From the NCBI GenBank assembly GCA_040954595.2, contig CM082584.2, positions 4,034,110 through 4,098,109 of the forward strand: a stretch of 64,000 nt of DNA. Direction: 5' to 3'. Positions 1 through 28,120 of the stretch are shown here, one piece after another. The translations under genes were made by a program, and so were the position numbers. The stretch is from Balanoglossus misakiensis. Its lineage: Eukaryota; Animalia; Hemichordata. The notes under the pieces were generated by a model. The model saw nothing but the letters and a program-made list of their open reading frames with translations. It did no database searches and was not told where the DNA came from. Each line of letters starts with the position of its first letter. The stretch's first letter is position 1.

Positions 1-90
1 TATGTTTCTACTCATTAATTATGTGCATATCTAATAATCAAATCAGATAATAGAGCTTGGGCCCGGACAATGCTGCTTGCAGCTTTAATT
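1..90 (+). mobile_element. 3' end of a Helentron/HINE-like element (same family as the 1858-25077 stack), inserted in an (ATT)n tract
   Basis: Ends AGAGCTTGGGCCCGGACAATGCTGCTTGCAGCTTTAATT, like the tails at 3781, 4879 and 7744. The paralogous site (~32745-32775) is an uninterrupted (TTA)n tract. Confidence 0.85.
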
Positions 91-305
91 ATTATTATTA
101 TTACTATTTATTTTTCATTTCCAAACCCTTCATCTAATCAAGTATTTGTGTGGTTTAGAATGATGTTTATTGCTTTGAATCCTTTGTCAGAAATATTTAA
201 AATTCATCATATAATTTTGGTAAAATCTGACACCATACTCTACAAATTTAAAGAGTAAGTGCCAAAACTCCCAAGTCACGTGATTTGATGCTGCTTTTGT
301 TGCAG

Positions 306-490
306 CCTGAACATCCAAACCCTGGACAGCCATACAGTGGTGGTTGGTTCGAAGGATACTTATGGGACGATGACGAGGGTCGTGAAGTGCTGCGGCTGTT
401 GAGGATTGCATTTGATCGCCGACTGACTTTCACCATCAATGGGGAATCAAACAAAGTAGTCTGGAATGGCATAACACATGGATACTTTGG
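306..490 (+). CDS. TRIM-DTC paralog 1, penultimate exon (Deltex C-terminal domain); upstream exon lies outside the window
   Basis: TTGCAG acceptor and GTAAG donor. Encodes PEHPNPGQPYSG...EGREVLRLLRIAFDRRLTFTI...VVWNGITH, matching Deltex DTC motifs. Colinear with 32974-33158. Confidence 0.88.
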
Positions 491-1857: not shown

Positions 1858-2340
1858 AGGGGCACAAGCCTATCGGGCTTGTGCCCCTATTGGTATTGTT
1901 GGAATTTTTAGGGCCCAAGCGCTTGCTTGCGCTTGGGCCCTATTGGTTTCGTTGGGGTTTTTTAGGGCCCAAGCGCTTGCTTGCGCTTGGGCCCTATTGG
2001 TTTCGTTGGAATTTTTAGGGCCCAAGCGCTTGCTTGCGCTTGGGCCCTATTGGTTTCGTTGGAATTTTTCTTTAGGGCCCAAGCGCAAGCAAGCGCTTGG
2101 GCCCTATTGGTTTCGTTGGAATTTTTAGGGCCCAAGCGCAAGCCAGCGCTTGGGCCCTATTGGTTTCGTTGGGGTTTTTAGGGCCCAAGCGCACGCAAGC
2201 GCTTGGGCCCTATTGGTTTCGTTGGAATTTTTAGGGCCCAAGCCAAGCCAGGCTTGGGCCCTATTGGTTTCGTTGGAATTTTTCAGTCTTTAGGGCCCAA
2301 GCCAAGCCAGGCTTGGGCCCTATTGGTTTCGTTGGTATTT
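1858..2340 (+). repeat. Stack of nine ~53-bp palindromic element heads
   Basis: Heads start at 1858, 1910, 1964, 2017, 2074, 2127, 2180, 2233 and 2292; each is a hairpin plus ATTGGTTTCGTTGG (variant in head 1) plus a T-run. Confidence 0.95.
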
Positions 2341-5300
2341 TTCAGTCTTTCTTTCTTTCTTTCTTTCTTTATTCTTATGTCAATTCTTTGTCGCTCTAGA
2401 TCTCAGACACCACTGCAGGTACAGTTTTCAAACTTGCTACAGTGGTCAAGGTCAATGAGTAGTCGTGCATTGAACCCATGAATGTTTAATTAGTCACGTG
2501 ACCTGGCGGCCATATTGGATTTTCTGAAAAAATGCAAATCTCAGATCTCAGAAACTACAAGTCAGATCGACTTCAAATTTGGCGTGCAGGTAGACTACCT
2601 TCTGTCAATCATTTTTGTAATTGGAAATTATGCTGACAAAGTTGCAGTTTTTTTGCTACAATTTTTTTTCTGAAATCTGGCTTACATTTCAAAAATCTTC
2701 TTCTCCAGAACCGGTGATAACCGAGACACGGGGTTTGGGGTATGTGGTCACCTAACTGATGTCTATCAAGTTTGCGAAGATCATTATGATTGGTCGAAGA
2801 TTACGGCGGCCATATTGGATTTTCGAAAAACCCTAGTAAAATTTCAAAAGTCTTCTTCTCAAGAACCGGCGATAACCGAGTCACAAGATTTGGTGTGTGT
2901 GGTCATTAAACAGATGTCTAACAAGTTTGCGAGGGGGATTGTGATTGGTCGAAGATTATGGCGGCCATATTGGATTTTGTGAAAAACGATTAAAAAGTAA
3001 AAATTCCTTTTCTAGCCTAAAAATTGATAGCATAGAAATTCTTTTTATGGATATGAATCATCATATGCCAAGAATAAGCTATAAATATTTTGGTAATTTT
3101 GGCAATGACCTTTGACCTACTTTTGACGCATCATTTTTCTGCATATCTAATTCCAGGCTAACCAATAGGGCTATAAGTTTGGTTTTTGATGTATGTGGAT
3201 TTGTATGTGATCAAAAAATGTTGCTACTTTTCATGACCCCTTTGACCTCTGCTGACCTCATTAAATATGCACATACCTAATTACAGGTGAACCAATAGAC
3301 CTAGAGGTTTTGTTTTTGTTATACATGGACCAGTATGGGGTAAAACTATTTTGCCCAAATGTTGGGTGACCTCGGGTGACCTTTGACCTACTTGTGCATA
3401 TCTTGACATCCACAGCAGATACAGCCTTGGCGTTTGGAGGTATGGGGCCATAATGAAAAGCCAAAGTTTTGGGTCACCTGTGACACCTGCTTAACTCATT
3501 ATTTATGTGTATACCTAATTCTGGGCTAACCAAAAGGGCTAGAGATCTGTTTTTTGTTGGACATGGACCACTATGGGTCACAATTTTCTGCCCAAATTGT
3601 GGGTGACCTCTGGGTGACCTTTGACCTACTTAACACTATATCAACACCAAGCATAGATATAACCTTGATATTTCATGGGATAAAACACAGCATTATGTTT
3701 CTACTCATTAATTATGTGCATATCTAATAATCTGATCAGATAATAGAGCTTGGGCCCGGACAATGCTGCTTGCAGCTTTAATTCTTTCTTTATTCTTATG
3801 TCAATTCTTTGTCGCTCTAGATCTCAGACACTGCTGCAGGTACACTTCTCAAACTTGCTACAGTGGTCAAGGTCAATGAGTAGTCGTGCATTGAACCCTT
3901 GAATTTTTAATTAGTCACGTGACCTGGCGGCCATCTTGGATTTTCTGAAAAAATGCAAATCTCAGATCTCAGAAACTACAAGTCAGATCGACTTCAAATT
4001 TGGCGTGCAGGTAGACTATCTTCTGCCCATCATTTTTGTAATTGGAAATTATGCTGTCAATGTTGCAGTTTTTTTGCTACAGTTGTTTTTCTGAAATCTG
4101 GTCAAAATTTCAAAAATCTTCTTCTCCAGAACCGGCGATAACCGAGTCACGCGGTTTGGGGTATGTGGTCACTAAACTGAGGTCTATCAAGTTTGCGAAG
4201 ATCATTGTGATTGGTCGAAGATTATGGCGGCCATATTGGATTTTCGAAAAACCTAGTAAAATTTCAAAAATCTTCTTCTCAAGAACCTGCGATAACTGAG
4301 TCACAAGATTTGGTGTGTGTGGTCATTAAACAGATGTCTATCAAGTTTGCGAAGAGGAATGTGATTGGTCGAAGATTATGGCGGCCATATTGGATTTTGT
4401 GAAAAACAATTAAAAAGTAAAAATTCCCTTTCTAGCCTAAAAATTGATAGCACAGAAATTCTTTTTATGGATATGAATCATCATATGCCAAGAATAAGCT
4501 ATAAATATTTTGGTAATTTTGGCAATGACCTTTGACCTACTTTTGAGGCATCATTTTTCTGCATATCTAATTTCAGGCTAACCTTTAAGGCTATCATTTT
4601 GGTTTTTGATGTATGTGGATTTGTATGTGATCAAAAATTTTTGCTACTTTTCATGACCCCTTTGACCTCTGCTGACCTCATTAAATATAAACATACCTAA
4701 TTACAGATGAACCAATAGACCTAGAGGTTTTGTTTTTGTTATACATGGACTAATATCGGGTCAAAATATTTTGCCCAAATGTTGGGTGACCTCGGGTGAC
4801 CTTTGACCTACTTAACACTATATCAGCATCAGATCAGATAATAGAGCTTGGGCCCGGACAATGCTGCTTGCAGCTTTAATTCTTTCTTTCTTTCTTTCTT
4901 TATTCTTGTGTCAATTCTTTGGGCAACGAGATCTCAGACACCGCTGCAGGTACACTTCTCAAACTTGCTACAGTGGTCAAGGTCAATGAGTAGATGTGCA
5001 GTGACTTGTGAATACTTAATTAGTCACGTGACCTGGCGGCCATATTGGATTTTCTGAAAAAAATCAAATCTCAGATCTCAGAAACTACAAGTCAGATCGA
5101 CTTCAAATTTGGCATGCAGGTAGACTACCTTCTACCCATCATTTTTGTAACTGGAAATTTTGCTGTCAATGTTGCAGTTTTTGTGCTACAGTTGTTTTTC
5201 TCAAATCTGGCTTACATTTCAAAAATCTTCTTCTCCAGAACCAGTGATAACCGAGACACGGGGTTTGGGGTTTGTGGTCACCTAACTGATGTCTATCAAG

Positions 5301-8300
5301 TTTGCGAAGATCATTGTGATTGGTCGAAGATTATTGCGGCCATATTGGATTTTCGAAAAACCATAGTAAAACTGCAAAAATCTTCTTCTCCAGAACGGCC
5401 GATGACTGAGACGCAAGATTCGGGGAGTATGGTCACTACACTGATGTCTATCAAATTTGCAAAGAGCATTGTGATTGGTCGAAGATTATGGCGGCCATAT
5501 TGGATTTCTTTAAAAAGCATTGAAAAATTGAAATTCCTTTTTCTAGTCCAAAAATTGATAGCATACAAATTCTTTTTATGGATATCGATCGTCAGGTGAC
5601 TAAAATATGTTACAATTTTTTGGCGATTTTTCACATGACCTTTGACCTACTTATCACGCGTTATTATTTCTGCATATCTAATTTCAGGCTAACCTATAGG
5701 GCTAGACGTTTGGTTTTTGATGCATGTGGATTAGTGTGTGATCAAAATATTTTGCTACTTTGCACGACCCCTTTGACCTCTGCTGACCTCATTAATTATG
5801 TGCATAGCTAATTACAGATGAACCAATAGAGCTAGAGGTTTAGTTTTTGTTGAACATGGACCAGTATGGGATCAAAATTTTTGGCCCAAATTTTGGGTGA
5901 CCTCTGGTGACCTTTGACCTACTTTCGCATATCTCAGCATCCAGAGCAGATACAGCCATGGCATTTGGCAGGATGGGACCAAAATGTAAAGCCACATTTT
6001 TTGGTCACCTGTTACACCTGCTGACCTCATTAAATATGCACATACCTAATTACAGGCGAACCAATAGAGCTAGAGTTTTGGTTTTTGTTGGACATGGACC
6101 AGTATGGGTAAAAAAAAAAATTGCCCAAATGTTGGGTGACCTCAGGTGACCTTTGACCTACTTCACCCTATTTCAGCAGCAAAAATACATACGTCCTTGT
6201 TATGTCATGAGATAATACACCCGATAGAAAATTCTATTTCTTCTCATTCATACTGTGCATATATAATTCGAGATCAGCGCTTGGGCCCGACAATGCTGCT
6301 TGCAGCTTTAATTCTTTCTTTCTTCTTTCTTTATTCTTGTGTCAATTCTTTGTCGCTCTAGATCTCAGACACCACTGCAGGTACACTTCTGAAACTTGCT
6401 ACAGTGGTCAAGGTCAATGAGTAGTCGTGCATTGAACCCTTGAATTTCTAATTAGTCACATGACCTGGCAGCCATCTTGGATTTTCTGAAAATATGCAAA
6501 TCTCAGATCTCAGAAACTACAAGTCAGATCGACTTCAAATTTGGCGTGCAGGTAGACTACCTTCTGCTTATCATTTTTGTAATTGGAAATTATGCTGAAA
6601 AAGTTGCAGTTTTTTTGCTACAATTTTTTTTCTGAAATCTGGCTTAAATTTCAAAAATCTTCTTCTCCAGAACCGGTGATAACCGAGACACTGGGTTTGG
6701 GGTATGTGGTCACCAAACTGAGGTCTATCAAGTTTGCGAAGATCATTGTGATTGGTCGAAGATTATGGCGGCCATATTGGATTTTCGAAAAACCCTAGTA
6801 AAATTTCAAAAATCTTCTTCTCAAGAACCAGCGATAACCGAGTCACAAGATTTGGGGAGTATGGTCACTACACTGATGTCTATCAAGTTTGCGAAGATCA
6901 TTGTGATTGGTCGAAGATTTTGGCGGCCATATTGGATTTTGTGAACAACGATTAAAAAGTAAAAATTCCGTTTCTAGCCTAAAAATTGATAGCACAGAAA
7001 TTCTTTTTATGGATATGAATCATCATATGACAAGAATAAGCTATAAATATTTTGGTAATTTTGGCAATGACCTTTGACCTACTTTTGACGCATCATTTTT
7101 CTGCATATCTAATTCCAGGCTAACCAATAGGGCTATAAGTTTGGTTTTTGATGTATTTGGTTTTGTATGTGATCAAAAATTTTTGCTACTTTTCATGACC
7201 CCTTTGACCTCTGCTGACCTCATTAAATATGCGCATACCTAATTACAGATGAACCAAATGACCTAGAGGTTTTTTTTTTTTTGGACATGGATCAGTATGG
7301 GGTCAAAATATTTTGCCCAAATGTTGGATGACCTCGGGTGACCTTTGACCTACTTTTGCATATCTCGACATCCACAGCAGATACAGCCTTGGCGTTTGGA
7401 GGTATGGGGCCATAATGAAAAGCCAAAGTTGTGGGGTCACCTGTGACACCTGCTTTACGCATTATTTATGTGAATACCTAATTCCGGGTTAACCAAAAGG
7501 GCTAGAGGTCTGGTTTTTGTTGGACATTGACCACTATGGGTCAAAATATTCTGCCCAAATTGTGGGTGACCCCTGGGTGACCTTTGACCTACTTAACACT
7601 ATATCAGCACCAAACATAGATATAACCTTGATATTTCATGGGATAAAACACTGCATTATGTTTCTACTCATTAATTATGTGCATATCTAATAATCAGATC
7701 AGATAATAGAGCTTGGGCCCGGACAATGCTGCTTGCAGCTTTAATTCTTTCTTTCTTTCTTTCTTTATTCTCCTGTCAATTCTTCGGCCAACTAAATCTC
7801 AGAAACTACTGCAGGTACACTGCTCAAACTTGCTACAGTGGTCAAGGTCAATGAGTAGATGTGCAGTGATTTGTGAATACTTAATTAGTCACGTGACCTG
7901 GCGGCCATATTGGATTTTCTGAAAATCATCAAATCTCAGATCTCAGAAACTACAAGTCAGATCGACTTCAAATTTGGCATGCAGGTAGACTACCTTCTAC
8001 CCATCATTTTTGTAATTGGAAATTATGCTGACAAAGTTGCAGTTTTTTTGCTACAATTTTTTTTCTGAAATCTGGCTTAAATTTCAAAAATCTTCTTCTC
8101 CAGAACCGGTGATAACCGAGACACGCGGTTTAGGGTATGTGGTCACCTAACTGATGTCTATCAAGTTTGCGAAGATCATTGTGATTGGTCGAAGATTATG
8201 GCGGCCATATTGGATTTTCGAAAAACCATAGTTAAACTCCAAAAATCTTCTTCTCCAGAACGGGCGATGACTGAGTCGCAAGATTCAGGGAGTATAGTCA

Positions 8301-11300
8301 CTACACTGATGTCTATCAATTTTGCAAAGAGCATTGTGATTGGTCGAAGATTATGGCGGCCATATTGGATTTTGTAAAAAGCAGTGAAAAATTGAAATTC
8401 CTTTTTCTAGTCTAAAAATTGATAGCATACAAATTCTTTTTATGGATATCAATCGTCATGTGACTAAAATATGTTACAATTTTTTGGCGATTTTTCACAT
8501 GACCTTTGACCTACTTATCACGCGTTATTATTTCTGCATATCTAATTCCAGGCTTACCTATAGGGCTAGAGGTTTGGTTTTTGATGAATGTGGATTAGTG
8601 TGTGATCAAAATATTTTGCTACTTTTCATGACCCCTTTGACCTCTGCTGACCTCATTAATTATGTGCATAGCTAATTACAGGCGAACCAATAGAGCTAGA
8701 GGTTTGGTTTTTGTTGGACAAGGACCAGAATGGGATCAAAATTTTTTGCCCAAATGTTACGTGACCTCTGGTGACCTTTGACCTACTTTCGCATATCTCA
8801 GCATCCAGAGCAGATACAGCCATGGCATTTGGTAGGATGGGACCAAAATGTAAAGCCACATTTTTGGGTCACCTGTGACACCTGCTGACCTCATTAAATA
8901 TGCACATACCTAATTACACGCGAACCAATAGAGCTAGAGTTTTGGTTTTTGTTGGACATGGCCCAGCATGGGTCAAAATTTTTTGCCCAAATGTTGGGTG
9001 ACCTCAGGTGACCTTTGACCTACTTCACCCTATTTCAGCAGCAAAAATACACACATCCTTGTTATGTCATGAGATAATACATCCGATAGAAAATTCTGTT
9101 TCTTCTCATTCATACTGTGCATATATAATTCAAGATCAGCGCTTGGGCCCGACAATGCTGCTCGCAGCTTTAATTAGGGCCCAAGCGCATGCAAGCGCTT
9201 GGGCCCTATTGGTTTCGTTGGAATTTTTCTTTCTTTCTTTATTCTCCTGTCAATTCTTCGGCCAACGAGATCTCTGAAACTACTGCAGGTACACTGCTCA
9301 AACTTGCTACAGTGGTCAAGGTCAATGAGTAGATGTGCAGTGACTTGTGAATACTTAATTAGTCACGTGACCTGGCGGCCATATTGGATTTTCTAAAAAA
9401 ATGCAAATCTCAGATCTCAGAAACTACAAGTCAGATCGACTTCAAATTTGGCATGCAGGTAGACTACCTTGTACCCATCATTTTTTAAAGAGAAAATTTT
9501 GCTGTCAATGTTGCAGTTTTTTTGCTACAATTTTTTTTCTGAAATCTGGCTTAAATTTCAAAAATCTTCTTCTCCAGAACCGGTGATAACCGAGACACAG
9601 GGTTTAGGGTATGTGGTCACCTAACTGATGTCTATCAAGTTTGCGAAGATCATTGTGATTGGTCGAAGATTATGGCGGCCATATTGGATTTTCGAAAAAC
9701 CATAGTTAAACTCTAAAAAATCTTCTTCTCCAGAACGGGCGATGACTGAGTTGCAAGATTCGGGGAGTATGGTTACTACACTGATGTCTATCAAGTTTTC
9801 AAAGAGCATTGTGATTGGTCGAAGATTATGGCGGCCATATTGGATTTTGTAAAAAGCAGTGAAAAATTGAAATTCCTTTTTCTAGTCTAAAAATTGATAG
9901 CATACAAATTCTTTTTATGGATATCAATTGTCATGTGACTAAAATATGTTACAATTTTTTGGCGATTTTTCACATGACCTTTGACCTACTTATTACACGT
10001 TATTATTTCTGCATATCTAATTCCAGGCTAACCTATAGGGCTAGACGTTTGGTTTTTGATGAATGTGGATTAGTGTGTGATCAAAATATTTTGCTACTTT
10101 TCATAACCCCTTTAACCTCTGCTGACCTCATTAATTATGTGCATAGCTAATTACAGGCGAACCAATAGAGCTAGAGGTTTGGTTTTTGTTGGACATGGAC
10201 CAGTATGGGATCAAATATTTTTGCCCAAATGTTGGGTGACCTCTGGTGACCTTTGACCTACTTTCGCATATCTCAGCATCCAGAGCAGATACAGCCATGG
10301 CATTTGGTAGGATGGGACCAAAATGTAAAGCCACATTTTTGGGTCACCTGTAACACCTGCTGACCTCATTAAATATGCACATACCTAATTACAGGCGAAC
10401 AAATAGAGCTTGACTTTTGGTTTTTGTTGGACATGGACCAGTATGGGTAAAAAAAATTGCCCAAATTGTGGGTGACCTCAGGTGACCTTTGACCTACTTC
10501 ACCCTATTTCAGCAGCAAAAATACACACATCCTTGTTATGTCATGAGATAATACATCCGATAGAAAATTCTGTTTCTTCTCATTCATACTGTGCATATAT
10601 AAATCAAGATCAGCGCTTGGGCCCGACAATGCTGCTTGCAGCTTTAATTAGGGCCCAAGCGCATACCAGCGCTTGGGCCCTATTGGTTTCGTTGGGGTTT
10701 TTCTTTCTTTCTTTCTTTATTCTTGTGTCATTTCTTTGTCGCTCTAGATCTCAGACACCGCTGCAGGTACACTTCTCAAACTTGCTACAGTGGTCAAGGT
10801 CAATGGGTAGTCGTGCATTGAACTCTTGAATTTTTAATTAGTCACGTGACATGGCGGCCATATTGGATTTTCTGAAAAAATGCAAATCTCAGATCTCAGA
10901 AACTACAAGTCAGATTTACTTCAGATTTGGTGTGCTGGTAGTGTACCTCCTGCCCATCATTCTTGTAATTGGATATTTTGCTGTCAATGATGCAGTTTTT
11001 TTGCTACAATTTTTTTTCTGAAATCTGGTCAAAATTTCAAAAATCTTCTTCTCCAGAACCGGCGATAACCGAGTCACGCGGTTTGGGGTATGTGGTCACC
11101 AAACTGAGGTCTATCAAGTTTGCGAAGATCCTTGTGATTGGTCGAAGATTATGGCGGCCATATTGGATTTTCGAAAAACCATAGTAAAACTTCAAAAATC
11201 TTCTTCTCAAGAACCGGCTATAACTGAGTCACAAGATTTGGGCAGTATGGTCACTATACTGATGTCTATCAAGTTTGCAAAGAGCATTGTGATTGGTCGA

Positions 11301-14300
11301 AGATTATGGCGGCCATATTGGATTTTGTGAAAAATGATTAAAAAGTAAAAATTCCTTTTCTAGCCTAAAAATTGATAGCACAGAAATTCTTTTTATGGAT
11401 ATGAATCATCATATGCCAAGAATAAGCTATAAATATTTTGGTAATTTTGGCAATGACCTTTGACCTACTTTTGACGCATCATTTTTCTGCATATCTAATT
11501 CCAGGCTAACCAATAGGGCTATAAGTTTGGTTTTTGATGTATGTGGATTTGTATGTGATCAAAAAATTTTGCTACTTTTCATGACCCCTTTGACCTCTCC
11601 TGACCTAATTAAATATGTACATAGCTAATTACAGGCAAACCAATAGAGCTAGAGGTTTGGTTTTTGTTGGACATGGACCAGTATGGGATCAAAAATTTTT
11701 GCCCAAATGTTGGGTGACCTCTGGTGACCTTTGACCTACTTTCGCATATCTCAGCATCCACAGCAGATACAGCCTTAGCGTTTGGAGGTATTGGGCCATA
11801 ATGAAAAGCCAAAGTTTTAGGTCACCTGTGACACCTGCTTAACTCATTATTTATGTGCATACCTAATTCCGGGCTAACCAAAAGGGCTAGAGATCTGGTT
11901 TTTGTTGGACATGGACCACTATGGGTCAAAATTTTCTGCCCAAATTGTGGGTGACCTCTGGGTGACCTTTGACCTACTTAACACTATATCAAAACCAAAC
12001 ATAGATATAACCTTGATATTTCATGGGATAAAACACAGCATTATGTTTCTACTCATTAATTATGTGCATATCTAATAATTAGATCAGATAATAAAGCTTG
12101 GGCCCGGACAATGCTGCTTGCAGCTTTAATTCTTTCTTTCTTTCTTTATTCTCCTGTCAATTCTTCGGCCAACTAAATCTCAGAAACTACTGCAGGTACA
12201 CTGCTCAAACTTGCTACAGTGGTCAAGGTCAATAAGTAGATGTGCAGTGATTTGTGAATACTTAATTAGTCACGTGACTTGGCGGCCATATTGGATTTTC
12301 TGAAAAAATGCAAATCTCAGATCTCAGAAACTACAAGTCAGATCGACTTCAAATTTGGCATGCAGGTAGACTACCTTCTACTCATCATTTTTGTAATTGG
12401 AAATTTTGCTGTCAATGTTGCAGTTTTTTTGCTACAATTTTTTTTCTGAAATCTGGCTTAAATTTCAAAAATCTTCTTCTCCAGAACCAGTGATAACCGA
12501 GACACGCGGTTTAGGGTATGTGGTCACCTAACTGATGTCTATCAAGTTTGCGAAGATCATTGTGATTGGTCGAAGATTATGGCGGCCATATTGGATTTTC
12601 GAAAAACCATAGTTAAACTCCTAAAATCTTCTTCTCCAGAACGGGCGATGACTGAGTCGCAAGATTCGGGGAGTATGGTCACTACACTGATGTCTATCAT
12701 GTTTGCAAAGAGCATTGTGATTGGTCAAAGATTATGGCGGCCATATTGGATTTTGTAAAAAGCAGCGAAAAATTGAAAATCCTTTTTCTAGTCTAAAAAT
12801 TGATAGCATACAAATTCTTTTTATGGATATCAATCGTCATGTGACTAAAATATGTTACAATTTTTTGGCGATTTTTCACATGACCTTTGACCTACCTATC
12901 ACGCGTTATTATTTTTGCATATCTAATTCCAGGCTAACCTGTAGGGCTAGACATTTGGTTTTTGATGAATGTGGATTAGTGTGTGATCGAAATATTTTGC
13001 TACTTTTCATGACCCCTTTGACCTCTGCTGACCTCATTAATTATGTGCATAGCTAATTACAGGCGCACCGATAGAGCTAGAGGTTTGGTTTTTGTTGGAC
13101 ATGGACCAGTATGGGATCACCATTTTTTGCCGAAATGTTGGGTGACCTCTGGTGACCTTTGACCTACTTTCGCATATCTCAACATCCAGAGCAGATACAG
13201 CCATGGCATTTGGTAGGATGGGACCAAAATGTAAAGCCACATTTTTGGGTCACCTGTAACACCTGCTGACCTCATTAAATATGCACATACCTAATTACAG
13301 GCGAACCAATAGAGCCAGAGTTTTGGTTTTTGTTGGACATGGACCAGTATGGGTAAAAAAAATTGCCCAAATGTTGGGTGACCTCAGGTGACCTTTGACC
13401 TACTTCACCCTATTTCAGCAGCAAAAATACACACATCCTTGTTATGTCATCAGATAATACATCCGATAGAAAATTCTGTTTCTTCTCATTCATACTGTGC
13501 ATATATAATTCAAGATCAGCGCTTGGGCCCGACAATGCTGCTCGCAGCTTTAATTCTTTAGGGCCCAAGCGCAAGCAAGCGCTTGGGCCCTATTGGTTTC
13601 GTTGGGGTTTTTTAGGGCCCAAGCGCAAGCAAGCGCTTGGGCCCTATTGGTTTCGTTGGAATTTTTCTTTCTTTCTTTCTTTCTTTCTTTATTCTCCTGT
13701 CAATTCTTCGGCCAACGAGATCTCTGAAACTACTGCAGGTACACTGCTCAAACTTGCTACAGTGGTCAAGGTCAATGAGTAGATGTGCAGTGACTTGTGA
13801 ATACTTAATTAGTCACGTGACCTGGCGGCCATATTGGATTTTCTGAAAAAATGCAAATCTCAGATCTCAGAAATTACAAGTCAGATCAACTTCAAATTTG
13901 GCATGCAGGTAGACTACCTTCTGCCCATCATTTTTGTAATCGGAAATTATGCTGTAAAAGTTGCAGTTTTTTTGCTACAATTTTTTTCCTGAAATCTGGC
14001 TTAAATTTCAAAAATCTTCTTCTCCTCAACCAGTGATAACCGAGTCACGGTGTTTGGGGTATGTGGTCACCTAACTGATGTCTATCAAGTTTGGGAAGAT
14101 CATTGTGATTGGTCGAAGATTATGGCGGCCATATTGGATTTTCGAAAAACCATAGTTAAACTCCAAAAATCTTCTTCTCCAGAACGGGCGATGACTGAGT
14201 CGCAAGATTCGGGGAGTATGGTCACTACACTGATGTCTATAAAGTTTGCAAAGAGCATTGTGATTGGTCGAAGATTATGGCGGCCATATTGGATTTTGTA

Positions 14301-17300
14301 AAAAGCAGTGAAAAATTGAAATTCCTTTTTCTAGTCTAAAAATTGTTAGCACAGAAATTCTTTTTATGGATATGAATCATCATATGACTACAATGTGCTA
14401 TAAATATTTTGGTAATTTTGGCAATGACCTTTGACCTACTTATCACGCGTTATTATTTCTGCATATCTAATTCCAGGCTAACCTATAGGGCTAGACGTTT
14501 GGTTTTTGATGCATGTGGATTAGTGTGTGATCAAAATATTTTGCTACTTTTCATGACCCCTTTGACCTCTGCTGACCTCATTAATTATGTGCATAGCTAA
14601 TTACAGGCGAACCAATACAGCTAGAGGTTTGGTTTTTGTTGAACATGGACCAGTATGGGGTCAAAAATTTTTGCCCAAATGTTGGGTGACCTCTGGTGAC
14701 CTTTGACCTACTTTCGCATATCTCAACGTCCAGACCAGATACAGCCTTGGCATTTGGCAGGATGGGACCTAAATGTAAAGCCAAATTTTTGGGTCACCTG
14801 TGACACCTGCTGACCTCATTAAATATGCACATACCTAATTACACGCGAACCAATAGAGCTAGAGTTTTGGTTTTTGTTGGACATGGCCCAGCATGGGTCA
14901 AAATTTTCTGCCCAAATGTTGGGTGACCTCAGGTGACCTTTGACCTACTTTACCCTATTTCAGCCGCAAAAATACACACGTCCTTGTTATGTCATGAGAT
15001 AATACACCCGATAGAAAATTCTGTTTCTTCTCATTCATACTGTGCATATATAATTCAAGATCAGCGCTTGGGCCCGACAATGCTGCTTGCAGCTTTAATC
15101 TTTCTTTCTTTCTTTCTTTCTTTCTTTTTTCTTGTGTCAATTCTTCGGCCAACTAAATCTCTGAAACTACTGCAGGTACACTGCTCAAACTTGCTACAGT
15201 GGTCAAGGTCTATGAGTAGATGTGCAGTGACTTGTGAATACTTAATTAGTCACGTGACCAGGCGGCCATATTGGATTTTCTGAAAAAATGCAAATCTCAG
15301 ATCTCAGAAACTACAAGTCAGATCGACTTCAAATTTGGCATGCAGGTAGACTACCTTCTACCCATCATTTTTGTAATTGGAAATTTTGCTGTCAATGTTG
15401 CAGTTTTTTTGCTACAATTTTTTTTGTGAAATCTGGCTTAAATTTCAAAAATCTTCTTCTCCAGAACCGGTGATAACTGAGACACGGGGTTTGGGGTATG
15501 TGGTCACCTAACTGATGTCTATCAAGTTTGCGAAGATCATTGTGATTGGTCGAAGATTATGGCGGCCATATTGGATTTTCGAAAAACCATAGTTAAACTG
15601 CAAAAATGTTCTTCTCCAGAACGGGCAATGACTGAGTCGCAAGATTCGAGGAGTATGGTCACTACACTGATGTCTATCAAGTTTGCAAAGAGCATTGTGA
15701 TTGGTCGAAGATTATGGCGGCCATATTGGATTTTGTAAAAAGCAGTGAAAAATTGAAATTCCTTTTTCTAGTCTAAAAATTGATAGCATACAAATTCTTT
15801 TTATGGATATCAATCGTCATGTGACTAAAAAATGCTACAATTTTTTGGCGATTTTTCACATGACCTTTGACCTACTTATCACGCTTTATTATTTCTGCAT
15901 ATCTAATTCCAGGCTAACCTATAAGGCTAGACGTTTGGTTTTTGATGAATGTGGATTAGTGTGTGATCAAAATATTTTGCTACTTTTCATGACCCCTTTG
16001 ACCTCTGCTGACCTCATTAATTATGTGCATAGCTAATGACAGGCGAACCAATAGAGCTAGAGGTTTGGTTTTTGTTGGACATGGACCAGTATGGGATCAA
16101 AATTTTTTGCCCAAATGTTGGGTGACCTCAGGTGACCTTTGACCTACTTCACCCTATTTCAGCAGCAAAAATACACACATCCTTTTTATGTCATGAGATA
16201 ATACATCCGCTAGAAAATTCTGTTTCTTCTCATTCATACTGTGCATATATAATTCAAGATCAGCGCTTGGGCCCGACAATTCTGCTCGCAGCTTTAATTC
16301 TTTCTTTCTTTCTTTATTCTCCTGTCAATTCTTCGGCCAACTAAATCTCAGAAACTACTGCAGGTACACTGCTCAAACTTGCTACAGTGGTCAAGGTCAA
16401 TAAGTAGATGTGCAGTGATTTGTGAATACTTAATTAGTCACGTGACTTGGCGGCCATATTGGATTTTCTGAAAAAATGCAAATCTCAGATCTCAGAAACT
16501 ACAAGTCAGATCGACTTCAAATTTGGCATGCAGGTAGACTACCTTCTACTCATCATTTTTGTAATTGGAAATTTTGCTGTCAATGTTGCAGTTTTTTTGC
16601 TACAATTTTTTTTCTGAAATCTGGCTTAAATTTCAAAAATCTTCTTCTCCAGAACCAGTGATAACCGAGACACGCGGTTTAGGGTATGTGGTCACCTAAC
16701 TGATGTCTATCAAGTTTGCGAAGATCATTGTGATTGGTCGAAGATTATGGCGGCCATATTGGATTTTCGAAAAACCATAGTTAAACTCCTAAAATCTTCT
16801 TCTCCAGAACGGGCGATGACTGAGTCGCAAGATTCGGGGAGTATGGTCACTACACTGATGTCTATCATGTTTGCAAAGAGCATTGTGATTGGTCAAAGAT
16901 TATGGCGGCCATATTGGATTTTGTAAAAAGCAGCGAAAAATTGAAAATCCTTTTTCTAGTCTAAAAATTGATAGCATACAAATTCTTTTTATGGATATCA
17001 ATCGTCATGTGACTAAAATATGTTACAATTTTTTGGCGATTTTTCACATGACCTTTGACCTACCTATCACGCGTTATTATTTTTGCATATCTAATTCCAG
17101 GCTAACCTTTAGGGCTAGACATTTGGTTTTTGATGAATGTGGATTAGTGTGTGATCGAAATATTTTGCTACTTTTCATGACCCCTTTGACCTCTGCTGAC
17201 CTCATTAATTATGTGCATAGCTAATTACAGGCGCACCGATAGAGCTAGAGGTTTGGTTTTTGTTGGACATGGACCAGTATGGGATCACCATTTTTTGCCG

Positions 17301-20300
17301 AAATGTTGGGTGACCTCTGGTGACCTTTGACCTACTTTCGCATATCTCAGCATCCAGAGCAGATACAGCCATGGCATTTGGTAGGATGGGACCAAAATGT
17401 AAAGCCACATTTTTGGGTCACCTGTAACACCTGCTGACCTCATTAAATATGCACATACCTAATTACAGGTGAACCAATAGAGCCAGAGTTTTGGTTTTTG
17501 TTGGACATGGACCAGTATGGGTAAAAAAAATTGCCCAAATGTTGGGTGACCTCAGGTGACCTTTGACCTACTTCACCCTATTTCAGCAGCAAAAATACAC
17601 ACATCCTTGTTATGTCATCAGATAATACATCCGATAGAAAATTCTGTTTCTTCTCATTCATACTGTGCATATATAATTCAAGATCAGCGCTTGGGCCCGA
17701 CAATGCTGCTCGCAGCTTTAATTAGGGCCCAAGCGCATACCAGCGCTTGGGCCCTATTGGTTTCGTCTGGGTTTTTCTGTCTTTCCTTCTTTCTTCTTTC
17801 TTTCTTTATTCTTGTGTCAATTCTTTGTCGCTCTAGATCTCAGACACCGCTGCAGGTACACTTCTGAAACTTGCTACAGTGGTCAAGGTCAATGAGTAGT
17901 CGTGCATTGAACCTGTGAATTTTTAATTAGTCACGTGACCTGGCGGCCATCTTGGATTTTCTAAAAAAATGCAAATCTCAGATCTCAGAAACTACAAGTC
18001 AGATCAACTTCAAATTTGGCATGCTGGTAGACTACCTTTTGCCTATCATTTTTGTAATTGGAAATTATGCTGACAATGTTGCAGTTTTTTTGCTACAATT
18101 TTTTTTCTGAAATCTGGCTTAAATTTCAAAAATCTTCTTCTCCAGAACCGACGATAACCGAGTCACGCCGTTTGGGGTATGTGGTCACCTAACAGATGTC
18201 TATCAAGTTTGCGAAGATCATTGTGATTGGTCGAAGATTATGGCGGCCATATTGGATTTTCGAAAAACCATAGTAAAACTTCAAAAATCTTCTTCTCCAG
18301 AACTGGCGATAACCGAGTCACAAGATTTGGTGTGTGTGATCATTAAACAGATGTCTATCAAGTTTGCGAAGGGGAATGTGATTGGTCGAAGATTATGGCG
18401 GCCATATTGGATTTTGTGAAAAACGATTAAAAAGTAAAAATTCCTTTTCTAGCCTAAAAATTGATAGCACAGAAATTCTTTTTATGGATATGAATCATCA
18501 TATGACAAGAATAAGCTATAAATATTTTGGTAATTTTGGCAATGACCTTTGACCTACTTTTGACGAATCATTTTTCTGCATATCTAATTCCAGGCTAACC
18601 AATAGGGCTATAAGTTTGGTTTTTGATGTATGTGGATTTGTACGTGATCAAAAAATTTTGCTACTTTTCATGACCCCTTTGACCTCTGGTGACCTCATTA
18701 AATATGCGCATACCTAATTACAGATTAACCAATAGACCTAAAGGTTTGGGGTTTTTTGGACATGGATCAGTATGGGGTCAAAATATTTTGCCCAAATGTT
18801 GGGTGACCTCCGGTGACCTTTGACCTACTTTTGCATATCTCGGCATCCAAAGCAGGTACAGCCTTGGCATTTGCAGATATGGGGCCATAATGAAAAGCCA
18901 AAGTTTTGGGTCACCTGTGACCTCTGCTGACCTCATTAATTATGTGCATAACTGATTACAGGTGAACCAATACAGCTAGAGGTCTGGTTTTTATTGGACA
19001 TGGACCACTATGGGTAAACATTTTCTGCCCAAATTTTGGGTGACCTCAGATGACCTTTGACCTACTTTTGCATATCTCGGCATCCAAAGCAGGTACAGCC
19101 TTGGCATTTGGAGATATGGGGCCATAATGAAAAGCCAATGTTTTGGGTCACCTGTGACACCTGCTTAACTCATTATTTATGTACATACCTAATTCCGGGC
19201 TAACCAAAAGGGCTAGAGGTCTGGTTTTTATTGGACATGGACCACTATGGGTCAAAATATTCTCCTCAAATTGTGGGTGACCCCTGGGTGCCTTTGACCT
19301 ACTTAACACTATATCAGCACCAAACATAGATATAACCTTGATAGATCTTGGGATAAAACACAGCATTATGTTTCTATTCATTAATTATGTGCATATCTAA
19401 TAATCAGATCAGATAATAGAGCTTGGGCCCGGACAATGCTGCTTGCAGCTTTAATCTTTCTTTCTTTCTTTCTTTCTTTCTTTTTTCTTGTGTCAATTCT
19501 TCGGCCAACTATATCTCTGAAACTACTGCAGGTACACTGCTCAAACTTGCTACAGTGGTCAAGGTCTATGAGTAGATGTGCAGTGACTTGTGAATACTTA
19601 ATTAGTCACGTGACCTGGCGGCGATATTGGATTTTCTGAAAAAATGCAAATCTCAGATCTCAGAAACTACAAGTCAGATCGACTTCAAATTTGACATGCA
19701 GGTAGACTACCTTCTACCCATCATTTTTGTAATTGGATATTTTGCTGTCAATGTTGCAGTTTTTTTGCTACAATTTTTTTTCTGAAATCTGGCTTAAATT
19801 TAAAAAATCTTCTTCTCCAGAACCGGTGATAACCGAGACACAGGGTTTGGGGTATGTGGTCACCTAACTGATGTCTATCAAGTTTGCGAAGATCATTGTG
19901 ATTGGTCGAAGATTATGGCGGCCATATTGGATTTTCGAAAAACCATAGTTAAACTGCAAAAATCTTCTTCTCCAGAACGGGCGATGACTTAGTCGCAAGA
20001 TTCGAGGAGTATGGTCACTACACTGATGTCTATCAAGTTTGCAAAGAGCATTGTGATTGGTCGAAGATTATGGCGGCCATATTGGATTTTGTAAAAAGCA
20101 GTGAAAAATTGAAATTCCTTTTTCTAGTCTAAAAATTGATAGCATACAAATTCTTTTTATGGATATCAATCGTCATGTGACTAAAATGTGTTACAATTTT
20201 TTGGCGATTTTTCACATGACCTTTGACCTACTTATCACGCGTTATTATTTCTGCATATCTAATTCCAGGCTAACCTGTAGGGCTAGACGTTTGGTTTTTG

Positions 20301-23300
20301 ATGAATGTGGATTAATGTGTGATCAAAATATTTTGCTACTTTTCATGACCCCTTTGACCTCTGCTGACCTCATTAATTATGTGCATAGCTAATTACAGGC
20401 GAACCAATAGAGCTAGAGGTTTGGTTTTTGTTGGACATGGACCAGAATGGGATCAAAATTTTTTGCCCAAATGTTGCGTGACCTCTGGTGACCTTTGACC
20501 TACTTTCGCATATCTCAGCATCCAGAGCAGATACAGCCATGGCATTTGGTAGGATGGGACCAAAATGTAAAGCCACATTTTTGGGTCAACTGTGACACCT
20601 GCTGACCTCATTAAATATGCACATACCTAATTACACGCAAACCGATAGAGCTAGAGTTTTGGTTTTTATTGGACATTATGGGTAAAAAAAAATTACCCAA
20701 ATGTTGGGTGACCTCAGGTGACCTTTGACCTACTTCACCCTATTTCAGCAGCAAAAATACACACATCCTTGTTATGTCATGAGATAATACATCCGATAGA
20801 AAATTCTGCTTCTTCTCATTCACACTGTGCATATATAATTCAAGATCAGCGCTTGGGCCCGACAATGCTGCTCGCAGCTTTAATTAGGGCCCAAGCGCGC
20901 ACAAGCGCTTGGGCCCTATTGGTTTCGTTGGAATTTTTAGGGCCCAAGCGCACGCAAGCGCTTGGGCCCTATTGGTTTCGTTGGGGTTTTTCTTTCTTTC
21001 TTTCTTTCTTTTTTCTTGTGTCAATTCTTCGGCCAACTAAATCTCTGAAACTACTGCAGGTACACTGCTCAAACTTGCTACAGTGGTCAAGGTCTATGAG
21101 TAGATGTGCAGTGACTTGTGAATACGTAATTAGTCATGTGACCTGGCGGCCATATTGGATTTTCTGAAAAAATGCAAATCTCAGATCTCAGAAACTACAA
21201 GTCAGATCGACTTCAAATTTGGCATGCAGGTAGACTACCTTCTACCCATCATTTTTGTAATTGGATATTTTGCTCTCAATGTTGCAGTTTTTTTGCTACA
21301 ATTTTTTTTCTGAAATCTGGCTTAAATTTCAAAAATCTTCTTCTCCAGAACCGGTGATAACCGAGACACGGGGTTTGGGGTATGTGGTCACCTAACTGAT
21401 GTCTATCAAGTTTGCGAAGATCATTGTGATTGGTCGAAGATTATGGCGGCCATATTGGATTTTCGAAAAACCATAGTTAAACTCCAAAAATCTTCTTCTC
21501 CAAAACGGGCGTTGACTGAGTCGCAAGATTCGGGGAGTATGGTCACTACACTGATGTCTATCAAGTTTGCAAAGAGCATTGTGATTGGTCGAAGATTATG
21601 GCGGCCATATTGGATTTTGTAAAAAGCAGTGAAAAATTGAAATTCCTTTTTCTAGTCTAAAAATTGATAACATACAAATTCTTTTTATGGATATCAATCG
21701 TCATGTGACTAAAATATGTTAAAATTTTTTGGCGATTTTTCACATGACCTTTGACCTACTTATCACACGTTATTATTTCAGCATATCTAAGTCCAGGCTA
21801 ACCTATAGGACTAAACGTTTGGTTTTTGATGAATGTGGATTAGTGTGTGATCAAAATATTTTGCTACTTTTCATGACCCCTTTGACCTCTGCTGACCTCA
21901 TTAATTATGTGCATAGCTAAATACAGGCGAACCAATAGAGCTAGAGGTTTGGTTTTTGTTGGACACAGACCAGTATGAGATCAAAAATTTTTGCCCAAAT
22001 GTTGCGTGACCTCTGGTGACCTTTGACCTACTTTCGCATATCTCAGCATCCAGAGCAGATACAGCCATGGCATTTGGTAGGATGGGACCAAAATGTAAAG
22101 CCACATTTTTGAGTCACCTGTGACACCTGCTGACCTCATTAAATATGCACATACCTAATTACAGGCGAACCAATAGAGCTAGAGTTTTGTTTTTTGTTGG
22201 ACATGGACCAGTATGGGATCAAAATTTTTTGCCCAAATGTTGCGTGACCTCTGGTGACCTTTGACCTACTTCACCCTATTTCAGCAGCAAAAATACACAC
22301 ATCCTTGTTATGTCATCAGATAATACATACGATAGAAAATTCTGTTTTTTCTCATTCATACTGTGCATATATAATTCAAGATCAGCGCTTGGGCCCGACA
22401 ATGCTGCTTGCAGCTTTAATTCTTTCTTTCTTTCTTTATTCTTGTGTCAATTCTTCGGCCAACTAAATCTCTGAAACTACTGCAGGTACACTGCTCAAAC
22501 TTGCTACAGTGGTCAAGGTCAATGAGTAGATGTGCAGTGACTTGTGAATACTTAATTAGTCACGTGACCTGGCGGCCATATTGGATTTTCTGAAAAAATG
22601 CAAATCTCAGATCTCAGAAACTACAAGTCAGATCGACTTCAAATTTGGCATGCAGGTAGACTACCTTCTACCCATCATTTTTGTAATTGGATATTTTGCT
22701 GTCAATGTTGCAGTTTTTCTGCTACAATTGTTTTTCTGAAATATGGCTTAAATTTCAAAAATCTTCTTCTCCAGAACCGGTGATAACTGAGACACGGGGT
22801 TTGGGGTATGTGGTCACCTAACCGATGTCTATCAAGTTTGCGAAGATCATTGTGATTGGTCGAAGATTATGGCGGCCATATTGGATTTTCAAAAAAACAC
22901 AGTTAAACTCCAAAAATCTTATTCTCCAGAACGGGCGATGACTGAGTGGCAAGATTCGGGTAGTACGGTCACTACACTGATGTCTATCAAATTTCCAAAG
23001 AGCATTGTGATTGGTCGAAGATTATGGCGGCCATATTGGATTTTGTAAAAAGCAGTGAAAAATTGAAATTCCTTTTTCTAGTCTAAAAATTGATAGCATA
23101 GCAATTCTTTTAATGGATATCAATCGTCATGTGACTAAAATATGTTACAATTTTTGGGGGATTTTTCACATGACCTTTGACCTACTTATCACGCGTTAAT
23201 ATTTCAGCATATCTAATTCCAGGCTAACCTATAGGGCTAGACTTTTGGTTTTTGATGCATGTGGATTAGTGTGTGATCAAAATATTTTGCTACTTTTCAT

Positions 23301-23845
23301 GACCCCTTTGACCTCTGCTGACCTCATTAATTATGTGCATAGCTAATTACAGGCGAACCAATAGAGCTAGAGGTTTGGTTTTTGTTGGACATGGACCAGT
23401 ATGGGATCAAAATTTTTTGCCCAAATTTTGGGTGACCTCTGGTGACCTTTGACCTACTTTCGCATATCTCAGCATCCAGAGCAGATACAGCCATGGCATT
23501 TGGCAGGATGGGACCAAAATGTAAAGCCACATTTTTGGGTCACCTGTGACACCTGCTGACCTCATTAAATATGCACATACCTAATTACAGGCGAACCAAT
23601 AGAGCTACAGTTTTGGTTTTTGTTGGACATGGACCAGTATGGGTAAAAAAAAAATTGCCCAAATGTTGGGTGACCTCAGGTGACCTTTGACCTACTTCAC
23701 CCTATTTCAGCAGCAAAATACACACATCCTTGTTATGTCATGAGATAATACATCCGATAGAAAATTATGTTTCTTCTCATTCATACTGTGCATATATAAT
23801 TCAAGATCAGCGCTTGGGCCCGACAATGCTGCTCGCAGCTTTAAT

Positions 23846-25077
23846 TCTTTATTATTCTTCTTCTTCTTCTTCTTCTTCCGAGAAATTCGGCCAGGTAGAT
23901 CTGGAAAACCGCTGCACCTAGGGGGCTGAAACTTGGTAGGGTGATAGGGGCCAATGAGTAGACGTGCAGTGGACCGTGAATCTTTAATTAGTCACGTGAC
24001 CTGGTGGCCATATTGGATTTCCTGAAAATCGTTAAACGAGTCCTTCTCAAAAACTACTGGGCCGATCGAGTTCAAATTTGGTGTGCAGGTAGCCTACCTT
24101 CTGTCCATCATTTTACTCCATTAAAATCATGACGTCATAGATACAGTTTTTTTGCTACAATTTTTTTTCTGAAAAACTACTTAAAACTTTAAAAATCTTC
24201 TTCTCCAGAACCAGCGATTGCCGAGTCACGGGATTCGGGGTATGTGGTCAACTAACCTATGTCTATCAAGTTTGCGAAGCGCACTGTGATTGGTCGATCA
24301 TTATGGCGGCCATGTTGGATTTTCGGGAAACCATTGAAAACTGAAAATTCTGTTTTGTAGCCAAAATGTTGACAGCACGTAAATTCTTTTTTTGGATATG
24401 AGTCATCATATGACCGGAAGTTGTCACAATTTTTCGGGGCAATTTTTACATGACCTTTGACCCAGTTTTAAAACAACTAATTATATATGCATATTCCCCA
24501 TACCTCCTCTTGTCAAAGCACCACAGTCATGAATTTTGTGGACATGGGTACCAATGCTGCCAGGACATGACACAAATATTTCGGTAATTTTGGCAATGAC
24601 CCTTGACCTATTTCTGAAACATCATTTTTCTGCATATCTAATTCCAGGCTAACCAATAGGGCTAGAGGTCTGGTTTTAGTTGGACATGGGCCACTCTGGG
24701 GTCAAAATTTTATGCCCAAATTTTGGGTGACCTTGGATGACCTTTGATCTACTTTCCCATATCTCAGCATCCACAGCAGTTAGAGTCCTGGCTTTTGGGA
24801 GGCCGATGGAGCACATATGGAGTCTTACACAAGACCTCATTAATTATGCGCATACCTAATTCTAGGCGAACCAATAGAGCTAGGGGTCTGGTTTTTGTTG
24901 GACCTAGACTAGTATGGGGTCCGATTTCCCCCCCCCCCCCCCCAAATTTGGGGTGACCTCATGTGACCTTTGACCTACTTTCCAATATCTTGGTATCCAC
25001 AGCAGATACAGCCTTGGCATTTGCTGGTTACCATGGGAACCGCTTGTGCCCCGCTAACGCTGCTTGCAGCTTTAATT
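23846..25077 (+). mobile_element. Body and tail of the outermost, most divergent HINE-like element, whose head is at 1858-1909
   Basis: Tail subTIR GCTTGTGCCCC (~25042-25052) is the reverse complement of GGGGCACAAGC, found only in the head at 1858. The body diverges from the other 15. Confidence 0.85.
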
Positions 25078-25933
25078 TTGATCAAAACCATCTGGCTTAC
25101 GCGTTCATGGCACACTTTCGACTCATATCGAAGTCTTGAGAATCATGGGTATATTCTTCAGAATTGTCATACTTCATTCATACTGGGATGGAATTTTGAA
25201 ATCACTACATTGTATTATATGGTTGTCATTTGCATACTTACCCGAGTTAAATATACTATTCCACGTTCACCGGGATCATACAAAATAAACATAATATGTC
25301 TAGTACTCGGTCCAAACACAAGACAGAATTGAGGTTTAACAGCTCATTGGACGTTCTTTGCCTGGGAATGTTCAAGAAATTGTGTTATTATACAAATTAT
25401 TTGAACTCAATGCCATGAGACATTTGGCAGCTTCATTTGCACAAATATATCACTAATTTGCTGCACATCATTTTAGAGTTTATAAACAGAGTTGTAAAAT
25501 TTTGCCAATGCTAAACGTGTTAGTCAAGAATCTAAGTACAGTTAATGTCATCACATATGAACAGGTATATTAGTGCCAAGTGTGGAATATTATTTCCTTC
25601 TATATCATGGACTAGGCATTGGTGAGATCCGATTATTAAATGAGGTGTTATTTTTATCATGTCACTTTTAGGGTATAACTTCCTTCACAGAAGAGCACAA
25701 TGCTGTATTTTTGTTATAAAACTTTGTTCTGTACTGTAGTTGTGTATATTTGACATCTCCATTTAATTTAATAATATTTAACTGTTGGCAACCAACAGTG
25801 GTTTGGCGTCACTGAACATCAAAATTATTATTAGCTGCACAACGTGTACCACACACTTGTGGGAGTGAAATCATTTCGTGAACAGTAATGGGAAAACTAA
25901 TACATGTAATACTACACATTTATATTTATCCAG

Positions 25934-27332: not shown

Positions 27333-27787
27333 TTATAATATACCTCATACTAATACTGTGCCGTGATTCGCCAGAATCCGTCACGTGATAGGAAAATAGA
27401 ATCGACTATGAACCGCTAGGGAAATAGCAGAAAAAATATAAACCGGTCACGTGACCAGCGTGAGTGCGCAGACTCAGTCACGTCAATCAGCGTCGCGTCG
27501 TCTGACACAATGGCCACCGCGGAAGATGTCGTCTGCCAATCTCAAGAGAAAAATGCAAGATTTTCCCAACTGTTAGCATGAGGTTTATTATAAAACACTT
27601 ATAGCCTGGCCTATATTCGGGCCATAGCAGCCGTTTTTACCCCCTCGTGACTGGGAGTTACCAGAATCATATGCTATTTCCCTCGGCCTGCGGCCTCGGG
27701 AAATAGCATATGATTCTGGTAACTCACAGCCCCTCGGGTGTAATAAACGGCCGCTATGGCCCTCATGGCCAGGAAATAGGTGTTCAA
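27333..27787. mobile_element. Non-autonomous insertion with a long internal hairpin (Crypton-like, tentative)
   Basis: Absent from the paralog (~37184). Palindrome GAGTTACCAGAATCATATGCTATTTCCC..GGGAAATAGCATATGATTCTGGTAACTC at 27656-27725; no clear TSD. The family call is inference. Confidence 0.6.
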
Positions 27788-28120
27788 AATAAAACAAATG
27801 TATAATAATTAAGGTATGGACGTTGGAGGCAGCAATCTATCCCATCATCCCCTTTTTTTCCCGTACATGTTTCCAAAACTCTATCCCTATAAAATTTACC
27901 ATCACCGTCGGTCAATAGCCTATTCTGGTCCTCTGTCCCATTCCCGCAACTGGCTGCGCTATGCTAAAAGACCCACGGGTCAGGTATAGACTATTGTTAG
28001 TATGGCTCTTATTGGTCAATAAATACGAACATTGTGATTGGACGAAAGCTATTTCAAACATTACAACATCCAAGTTTGAGTTTGTTTGCCAATCAAAATA
28101 TGCTACAAGTCAAAGCATCG

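Follow-up and report, generated by a model that had tools for sequence, protein, structure and literature searches.

In the parts of the literature accessible to us, HINE and DINE-1 elements are described as non-autonomous Helentrons (Thomas et al. 2014, PMC4067079; Yang and Barbash 2008, PMC2374699), with Cg_HINE of the oyster as a further example (PMC7492417). Target choice by Helitron2/Helentron transposases is stated to be untested in section 16 of PMC4067079, and the Helitron2 target has been given as TTTT followed by T or C (PMC5148889 section 6). In Fusarium oxysporum, copies of the Helitron2 element FoHeli contain repeats of their first 31-85 nt that were ascribed to self-insertion (Chellapan et al. 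2016, PMC5148889 sections 6, 10), and single copies of Fusarium Helitron2 have been reported with as many as five 5' termini (PMC13342296). Tandem or nested Helitrons have been found in maize, bats and Xenopus (PMC3288121, PMC4778049, PMC12001565), and the same group of papers reports no local hopping for Helraiser. Additionally, double insertion of a transposon has been described as the seed of a satellite (McGurk and Barbash, bioRxiv 10.1101/158386). Here we describe a satellite-like, 23-kb array of HINE/DINE-1-type elements in the hemichordate Balanoglossus misakiensis, within a stretch of 64,000 nucleotides (GenBank assembly GCA_040954595.2, contig CM082584.2, positions 4,034,110 to 4,098,109, forward strand; hereafter the window). 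The array is probably best explained as 16 nested copies of three subfamilies, joined 21-29 nt behind the hairpins in one another's heads.

A nest of sixteen elements

Each element has a head, in which a 5' subterminal inverted repeat (subTIR) stands beside an inverted inner arm, and a body that ends in a tail with the 3' subTIR. Elements are named here by the position of their first base and are listed in Table 1. A fuzzy search of both strands, with at most three mismatches in heads and four in tails, found 16 heads and 16 tails in the array, every one at exactly the coordinate given by a first-pass annotation of the same DNA. Outside the array the search found one further tail, at 69-88, and no further head; all 16 heads and 17 tails lie on the forward strand. 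When heads are treated as opening and tails as closing brackets, a stack parse rises to a maximum depth of 9 and first reaches zero at 25075, as the annotation had stated. Its pairing of the last tail with the first head through a unique subTIR also stood: GGGGCACAAGC has a single occurrence, at 1859, and GCTTGTGCCCC is found at two places only, the inner arm of the first head (1877) and the last tail (25042). The annotation had further argued from the balanced brackets to nesting. The balance is real, but a word of 16 heads and 16 tails that starts with a head and ends with a tail closes only at its end by chance in 1 of 16 cases, so balance alone is weak evidence and the proof of nesting is carried by the matching of heads to bodies.

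The bodies form two clades, A (5 bodies) and B (10 bodies), with support of 100 and 99, plus the single body of subfamily C. A and B bodies are 85.5-88.2% identical, and C is about 70% identical to the others. The six uninterrupted elements supplied three rules that link a head to its body: a head loop ending in CCAG accompanies an A body; where GGGG stands in a B head, the tract ends in six T; and CAGTC in the head tract accompanies one body-start variant. The fourth rule is subTIR complementarity for subfamily C. All four hold in 10 of the 10 head-body pairs that have been separated by insertions, and 240 of 3,628,800 permutations do likewise. Distances among heads also correlate with distances among bodies under the stack pairing, both in all 16 elements (rho 0.62, p ~1e-4) and in the 10 separated pairs (rho 0.61, p 0.007), whereas a queue (first-in-first-out) pairing gives a rho of 0.10. 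Furthermore, the parse assigns the identical heads of 1964 and 2017 to the two near-identical bodies, which show three differences. Head type thus predicts body type in last-in-first-out order, and the nesting is true nesting. Two points reduce the weight of these figures: the matching rules were picked by eye after the alignment had been viewed, which makes the permutation figure somewhat generous, and in the nine separated A/B pairs without C the correlation is not significant (rho 0.25, p 0.078).

Removal of the inner elements in silico yields 16 units of 1,157-1,731 bp, of which 12 measure 1,472-1,490 bp. Every insert contributes exactly two extra T. If each element end is given one of them, this iterative excision, which the annotation had proposed as a check, restores the T runs of 10 of 10 hosts and the site found in the paralog, with cuts at T^T (14) or T^C (2). 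Other assignments of the added bases were also tried. Placing both T at the 5' end, or both at the 3' end, was in each case contradicted at one or more junctions, and a plain duplication of TT was contradicted at two junctions that have a single T on the right.

The array lies within an intron (491-25933) behind an exon of a Deltex domain. The next exon after this intron gave no Pfam match; we take it to be the end of the Deltex domain. Both flanks of the array align to a paralogous copy at 32756-37190 with 130 substitutions in 3,460 columns (3.8%). The paralog is continuous across the insertion site and keeps the empty TTTT that the annotation had pointed to, against six T around the array. 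All 16 insertions post-date a duplication that is now 3.8% diverged. This local duplication comprises the last two exons of the Deltex C-terminal-domain gene (88-28400 against 32756-37805, 3.8% diverged). The founding site itself is situated within a duplicated unit of ~230 bp, in which 1588-1773 matches both 35117-35302 and 25073-25207.

With the exception of 1964 and 2017, no two bodies are more than 97.7% identical. A and B elements alternate along the array, and no block of several elements is duplicated. Heads that are stacked apart from their bodies, and a single pair above 98% identity, are not what defines a classical satellite or a rolling-circle product. Only one of the 15 inserts is nearly the same as the element around it, namely 2017 in 1964. 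A model in which each element copies its host was accordingly rejected, and this count together with the presence of three subfamilies indicates that most inserts originated at other genomic sites.

Unequal crossover, slippage of the 53-bp head, gene conversion or a rolling-circle concatemer might nevertheless have left a nesting that is only apparent. Such a history would suit the identical heads and three body differences of 1964 and 2017, the three adjacent heads with an inverted loop, and best matches that shift along the bodies in the way that conversion would give, and some local conversion in the array is possible. However, these processes would keep neither the number of heads equal to that of tails nor the types of heads and bodies in last-in-first-out order, and they agree poorly with the divergence of the other body pairs, the alternation of A and B and the lack of duplicated blocks. 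We consider this explanation very unlikely, in keeping with the annotation's own preference against unequal crossover and rolling-circle concatemers. An assembly artefact is extremely improbable. Three sequencing runs of a single sample, from which the window itself may derive, gave contigs that are not long enough to cross the junctions, and none spans the array; yet the copies are 2-30% apart except for one pair, misassembly would not give matched nesting, and unrelated contigs show junctions of the same types.

The annotation had proposed serial self-insertion in one orientation, and the head-body matching, the restored T runs, the divergence of the copies and the empty paralog all agree with it. 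We therefore hold it to be very probable that serial, site-specific self-insertion built the array. Element 2017 contains seven others that diverge by up to 14%, and it is itself only three positions from its host copy, so that the three subfamilies appear to have been active together. The contents of 2017 reflect either a short burst of many masters or a conversion that made 1964 and 2017 alike.

Table 1. Coordinates of the nested elements and of the features that define their locus (positions in the window)
Feature	Coordinates	Strand	Subfamily	Depth	Remarks
Outermost element	1858..25075	+	C	1	head from 1858, body 23845-25075; 1285 bp without inserts; own subTIR variant; ~70% identity to others
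Element	1910..20883	+	B	2	body 19455-20883; head loop is reverse complement of common loop
Element	1964..17721	+	B	3	body 16298-17721
Element	2017..13553	+	B	4	body 12130-13553; head identical to 1964, 3 body differences from 1964; 7 inner elements inside
Element	2074..9173	+	B	5	body 7745-9173
Element	2127..7744	+	A	6	body 6312-7744
Element	2180..6311	+	B	7	body 4880-6311
Element	2233..4879	+	A	8	body 3782-4879; shortened, 1157 bp
Uninterrupted element	2292..3781	+	A	9	
Uninterrupted element	9176..10647	+	B	5	5' subTIR 9176-9188; inner inverted arm 9195-9207; T/(TTTC)n tract 9224-9240; two 155-bp central repeats 9560-9855; 3' subTIR from 10613; short stem-loop 10631-10642
Uninterrupted element	10650..12129	+	A	5	
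Element	13560..16297	+	B	4	body 15099-16297; shortened, 1253 bp
Uninterrupted element	13614..15098	+	B	5	
Uninterrupted element	17724..19454	+	A	3	1731 bp; internal 237-bp tandem repeat 18676-19304
Element	20886..23844	+	B	2	body 22420-23844
Uninterrupted element	20939..22419	+	B	3	
3' end of another element, truncated by window start	1..88	+	A		within (TTA)n tract upstream of Deltex-domain exon; paralog empty there (32745-32776)
Host exon, part of Deltex C-terminal domain	300..490	+			Pfam DTC, E 1e-16
Empty site, four T, in paralogous copy	35159..35162	+			in one arm of predicted hairpin ~35132-35180

Element anatomy and related copies

In 16 of 16 elements the 3' subTIR ends 23-24 nt before the terminus (9176 serves as the example in Table 1), and in 16 of 16 heads the inverted inner arm beside the 5' subTIR forms a perfect stem of 12-13 bp. 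Two heads were folded and gave strong hairpins (z -6.5 at -19.1 kcal/mol, and z -6.9). The short palindrome between the 3' subTIR and the end of the element is energetically weak (z 0.9 and 0.1). Each head is followed by a T run and then by a (TTTC)n tract, and all bodies except that of subfamily C, 15 of 16, are listed with a pair of 155-bp central repeats. The longest frame that begins with ATG is 54-82 amino acids in 15 elements and 161 amino acids in one, a Pfam search of four longer element frames matched none of them, and the array elements are non-coding. A search of Rfam gave no match. The elements thus combine the features by which HINE/DINE-1 are recognised, namely subTIRs, a 5' hairpin arm, a 3' stem-loop, a microsatellite with central repeats, insertion at T^T or T^C, and no coding capacity. 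By anatomy they are HINE/DINE-1-type non-autonomous Helitron2 elements. They are candidate members of the Helentrons proper, whose autonomous partner would share their ends and encode a Rep-helicase together with an endonuclease.

The summed depth of public contigs over the body exceeds that over the flank ~1,300- and 2,000-fold, rough values that do not represent copy number, and contig depth gives roughly 1.2 heads per body. These contigs come from the same three runs and single sample as above and are not independent of the window. The depths fit a high-copy family whose copies normally carry the head.

One feature of the head palindromes stands apart from the nest. The 6-nt loop of 1910, 1964 and 2017, which adjoin each other, is the exact reverse complement of the loop in 2074, 13560 and 13614. 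The closest body relative of 1910 is 13560 despite the opposite orientation of their head loops. The reversed loops may stem from hairpin inversion or from conversion among neighbouring heads.

Related copies were sought in other collections. A search of metagenome contigs with the tail motif found at least 120 loci, with full flanks for ~80, and most of these come from three contig sets and hence from few animals. Among the matches listed, 108 of 122 tails have a subTIR-like motif upstream; the 3' palindrome motif recurs in these 108 element-like tails, which were selected on that motif. Directly behind the 108 listed tails there is a head in 20, a headless body start in four (three strong matches, and L066, which was judged from its printed sequence) and other DNA in 84. 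Among the matches listed, 20 heads have enough downstream sequence, and behind three of them a second head begins, at 24, 25 and 27 nt. Of the 13 distinct junctions among these matches, 12 have a tail subTIR that stops 24 nt short of the terminus. Pfam matches to 7tm_1 and AIG1 on two fetched loci indicate that the related loci are animal DNA, and their source may be fish. The head at a further related locus (L036) closely resembles that of the outermost array element.

Four other loci (L001, L012, L039 and L056) represent a related family with a much longer head, in which a second palindrome lies inside the first, and in L056 a head end appears to be fused to a tail. The exact head motif had no match in metagenome or viral contigs, and the tail motif had none in viral contigs. 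In prokaryote genomes the tail motif had 14 matches that by eye are due to chance, except for L122. There, at 3950-4020, an element-like tail lies beside retroelement-like frames in a contig of a bacterial metagenome-assembled genome, and it is probably animal DNA in a bacterial bin.

Insertion site and target choice

Counted in host bases behind the inner arm of the head, the 15 cuts lie at 21 nt (5), 22 nt (5), 25 nt (4) and 29 nt (1). As a raw distance, each inner head begins 22-30 nt past a subTIR core, be it that of a head or of a tail. The cuts fall in the first or second T run behind the head, 10 of the 15 in the first run of at least four T after the hairpin, and none falls deeper in the (TTTC)n tract. 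Of the target named by the annotation, the T/(TTTC)n tract behind the element's own head, the location behind the head was correct; the tract at large is not used, only its first or second T run 21-29 nt past the inner arm. The inner arm and the 3' subTIR share both motif and orientation, and from the core of that 3' subTIR to the end of the element there are 23-24 nt plus the terminal T. Heads stand directly behind tails at four junctions of the array.

A plain preference for poly-T or microsatellites, with the tracts of the elements struck by chance, has some points to commend it. A T-rich target preference is established in the accessible text of PMC4067079 and PMC7492417, a (TTA)n tract received the insertion at 88, and what follows the 84 of 108 listed tails elsewhere that have neither head nor body start behind them is mostly T-rich by eye. 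The same elements of the array, however, hold 386 other T runs (230 on the same strand and 156 on the opposite strand) and not one of these has an insert, against 15 inserts at the head site. None is found deeper in (TTTC)n and none in the opposite orientation. This preference is contradicted at the array locus, and as the whole explanation it is highly improbable.

With each insert the host is divided into a head and a body, one T is gained per side and a fresh head arrives. The target is thereby renewed, so that heads pile up on the left while bodies follow on the right in reverse order. In the mechanism that we propose, a Rep-helicase transposase supplied in trans would perform the joining. 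This enzyme would bind the inner arm because the arm is a subTIR oriented like the 3' subTIR, and it would cut the T run ~24 nt past the arm, in the same way as at the 3' terminus of an element. By this rule new copies would also land immediately behind tails. For the proposal that the subTIR and its spacing are the cause of site choice, we find the chances evenly balanced.

Structure-based site choice is a serious rival to subTIR binding. Here self-insertion would again be serial, but a hairpin or cruciform formed by the head palindrome, with its 14-bp stem, would expose the adjacent T run in single-stranded form, and an HUH transposase would cut TTTT^T/C without reading the subTIR. HUH nucleases are described as cutting single-stranded DNA in the accessible part of PMC4778049, the head folds strongly, and the 10 cuts in the first run of at least four T lie just behind this fold. 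The founding site is also in a strong host hairpin, at ~35132-35180 in the paralog (-14 kcal/mol, z -5.4). Against this, three inserts in 2017 use the second T run and the first is left empty, and at the related locus L087 the insert is at 25 nt, past an unused five-T run that lies closer, at 5-9 nt from the arm. Moreover, tails fold weakly, yet heads follow them at the four junctions here and behind 20 of the 108 tails among the matches listed elsewhere. We regard this structural choice as somewhat improbable.

Recognition of the subTIR also has a number of observations against it. In the 1.7 kb upstream of the founding insertion (1858) there is no subTIR core, and this insertion lies in the host hairpin just described, while the insertion at 88 is in (TTA)n with no strong hairpin; the founding insertion and that at 88 imply that the family also uses sites without a subTIR. 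The head segment behind the arm lacks the stem-loop of the tail, and the cut positions are spread over 21-29 nt rather than fixed at 24-25. When the inner arm in related families was compared with the tail subTIR and with the perfect inverse of the 5' subTIR in 13 listed cases, it was closer to the tail in five, equal in five and further in three, a split that favours neither side. By eye, no Rep-helicase partner was recognised among the 38 frames of at least 100 amino acids in the window, the four largest of which belong to other Pfam families or to none and include no transposase, and no Rep-helicase frame was recognised among the long frames of the fetched related loci. In addition, the order of side-by-side inserts is unreadable from the array.

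That a widespread animal Helitron2 lineage aims at its own ends, with the extra subTIR arm of the head as a landing pad that is renewed by each copy, is a tentative proposal, plausible though slightly short of probable. If true, this landing-pad rule would account at once for head stacks, for tandems joined head to tail and for fungal Helitron2 copies with several 5' termini, and satellite-like arrays would be ordered, datable nests grown by insertion alone. The fixed distance from the subTIR opens the target choice of the transposase to a simple assay; should it be real, it would suggest that a eukaryotic HUH transposase has a short landing pad on DNA. The nest orders insertions in time. It also means that satellite-like arrays are possible without unequal crossover or concatemers, and many Helentron-derived "satellites" may need re-parsing.

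Surroundings of the array and comparison with known systems

Several other features are found in the window. An open reading frame (ORF) of TRIM type with RING and B-box domains (29746-31191) lies between the two Deltex copies. At 58089-62217 there is a GC-rich retrotransposon-like element with an ORF of 404 amino acids and another of 667 amino acids that has a weak RVT_1 match. Its direct repeats are split (58089-58238 with 61776-61925, and 61563-61779 with 62001-62217), an arrangement also seen in Ngaro/DIRS elements. A broken element of the long interspersed nuclear element type lies on the reverse strand at 53124-56285, with an RVT_1 frame (E 1e-31) and endonuclease-like pieces in other frames. 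The TRIM-type gene and the retrotransposon ORFs fit an animal genome. Palindromic elements resembling miniature inverted-repeat transposable elements occur at 27584-27793, 50387-50735 and 41919-42369, with further copies in the window. A perfect tandem duplication of 130 bp at 47971-48230 is either a recent event or an assembly slip.

A search for the end motifs of the array gave no match in those supplements of PMC4067079 and PMC11417382 that are searchable, nor in the full-text literature. The accessible parts of PMC11417382, PMC12001565, PMC13085455 and PMC3630058 contain nothing on fixed-site nesting. In our search the accessible literature, which leaves aside subscription journals, repeat databases and image-only supplements, yielded the precedents from Fusarium and maize but neither a rule of spacing nor a nest that is both complete and balanced.

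As far as the accessible text of the papers cited above goes, the array elements resemble HINE/DINE-1 in their 13-bp subTIRs, the inverted arm beside the 5' subTIR, a 4-nt microsatellite, central tandem repeats and a 3' stem-loop. They also share with them the lack of coding capacity, insertion at TT with T termini, and an intronic location. The tract is GTCY in HINE/DINE-1 and (TTTC)n here. The set-back of the 3' subTIR, counted from its end, is shorter than the 38-60 bp of mite HINEs, and for FoHeli it is given as ~20-40 bp. T-rich targets and tandem copies have been described for HINE/DINE-1, but not insertion at a fixed distance behind the element's own head.

The Helitrons of maize, bats and Xenopus are similar in that they insert beside or into other Helitrons and acquire multiple termini from nests. 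In the text available to us, these insertions have no fixed position relative to the end of the host, and the tandem arrays are ascribed to rolling-circle replication. Satellites seeded by double insertion resemble the array because the site survives each insertion and tandem elements result. There, however, the site is kept by target-site duplication and unequal exchange then expands the arrays, whereas here the new target arrives inside each element and growth is by insertion alone.

FoHeli belongs to the same Helitron group and also has stacked short 5' ends, and one of its copies lies 2 bp from another (PMC5148889). Its stacks, as described in the accessible sections, have several 5' ends and one 3' end and are chimeras that moved on. 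In the array, by contrast, every head keeps its body and tail to a depth of 9, there is no chimera, and the record of insertions is full. Self-insertion near the 5' end is therefore already known in outline from Fusarium Helitron2, and the new parts are the depth of the nest, its intact record with an empty site, and a spacing that matches the element's own 3' end.

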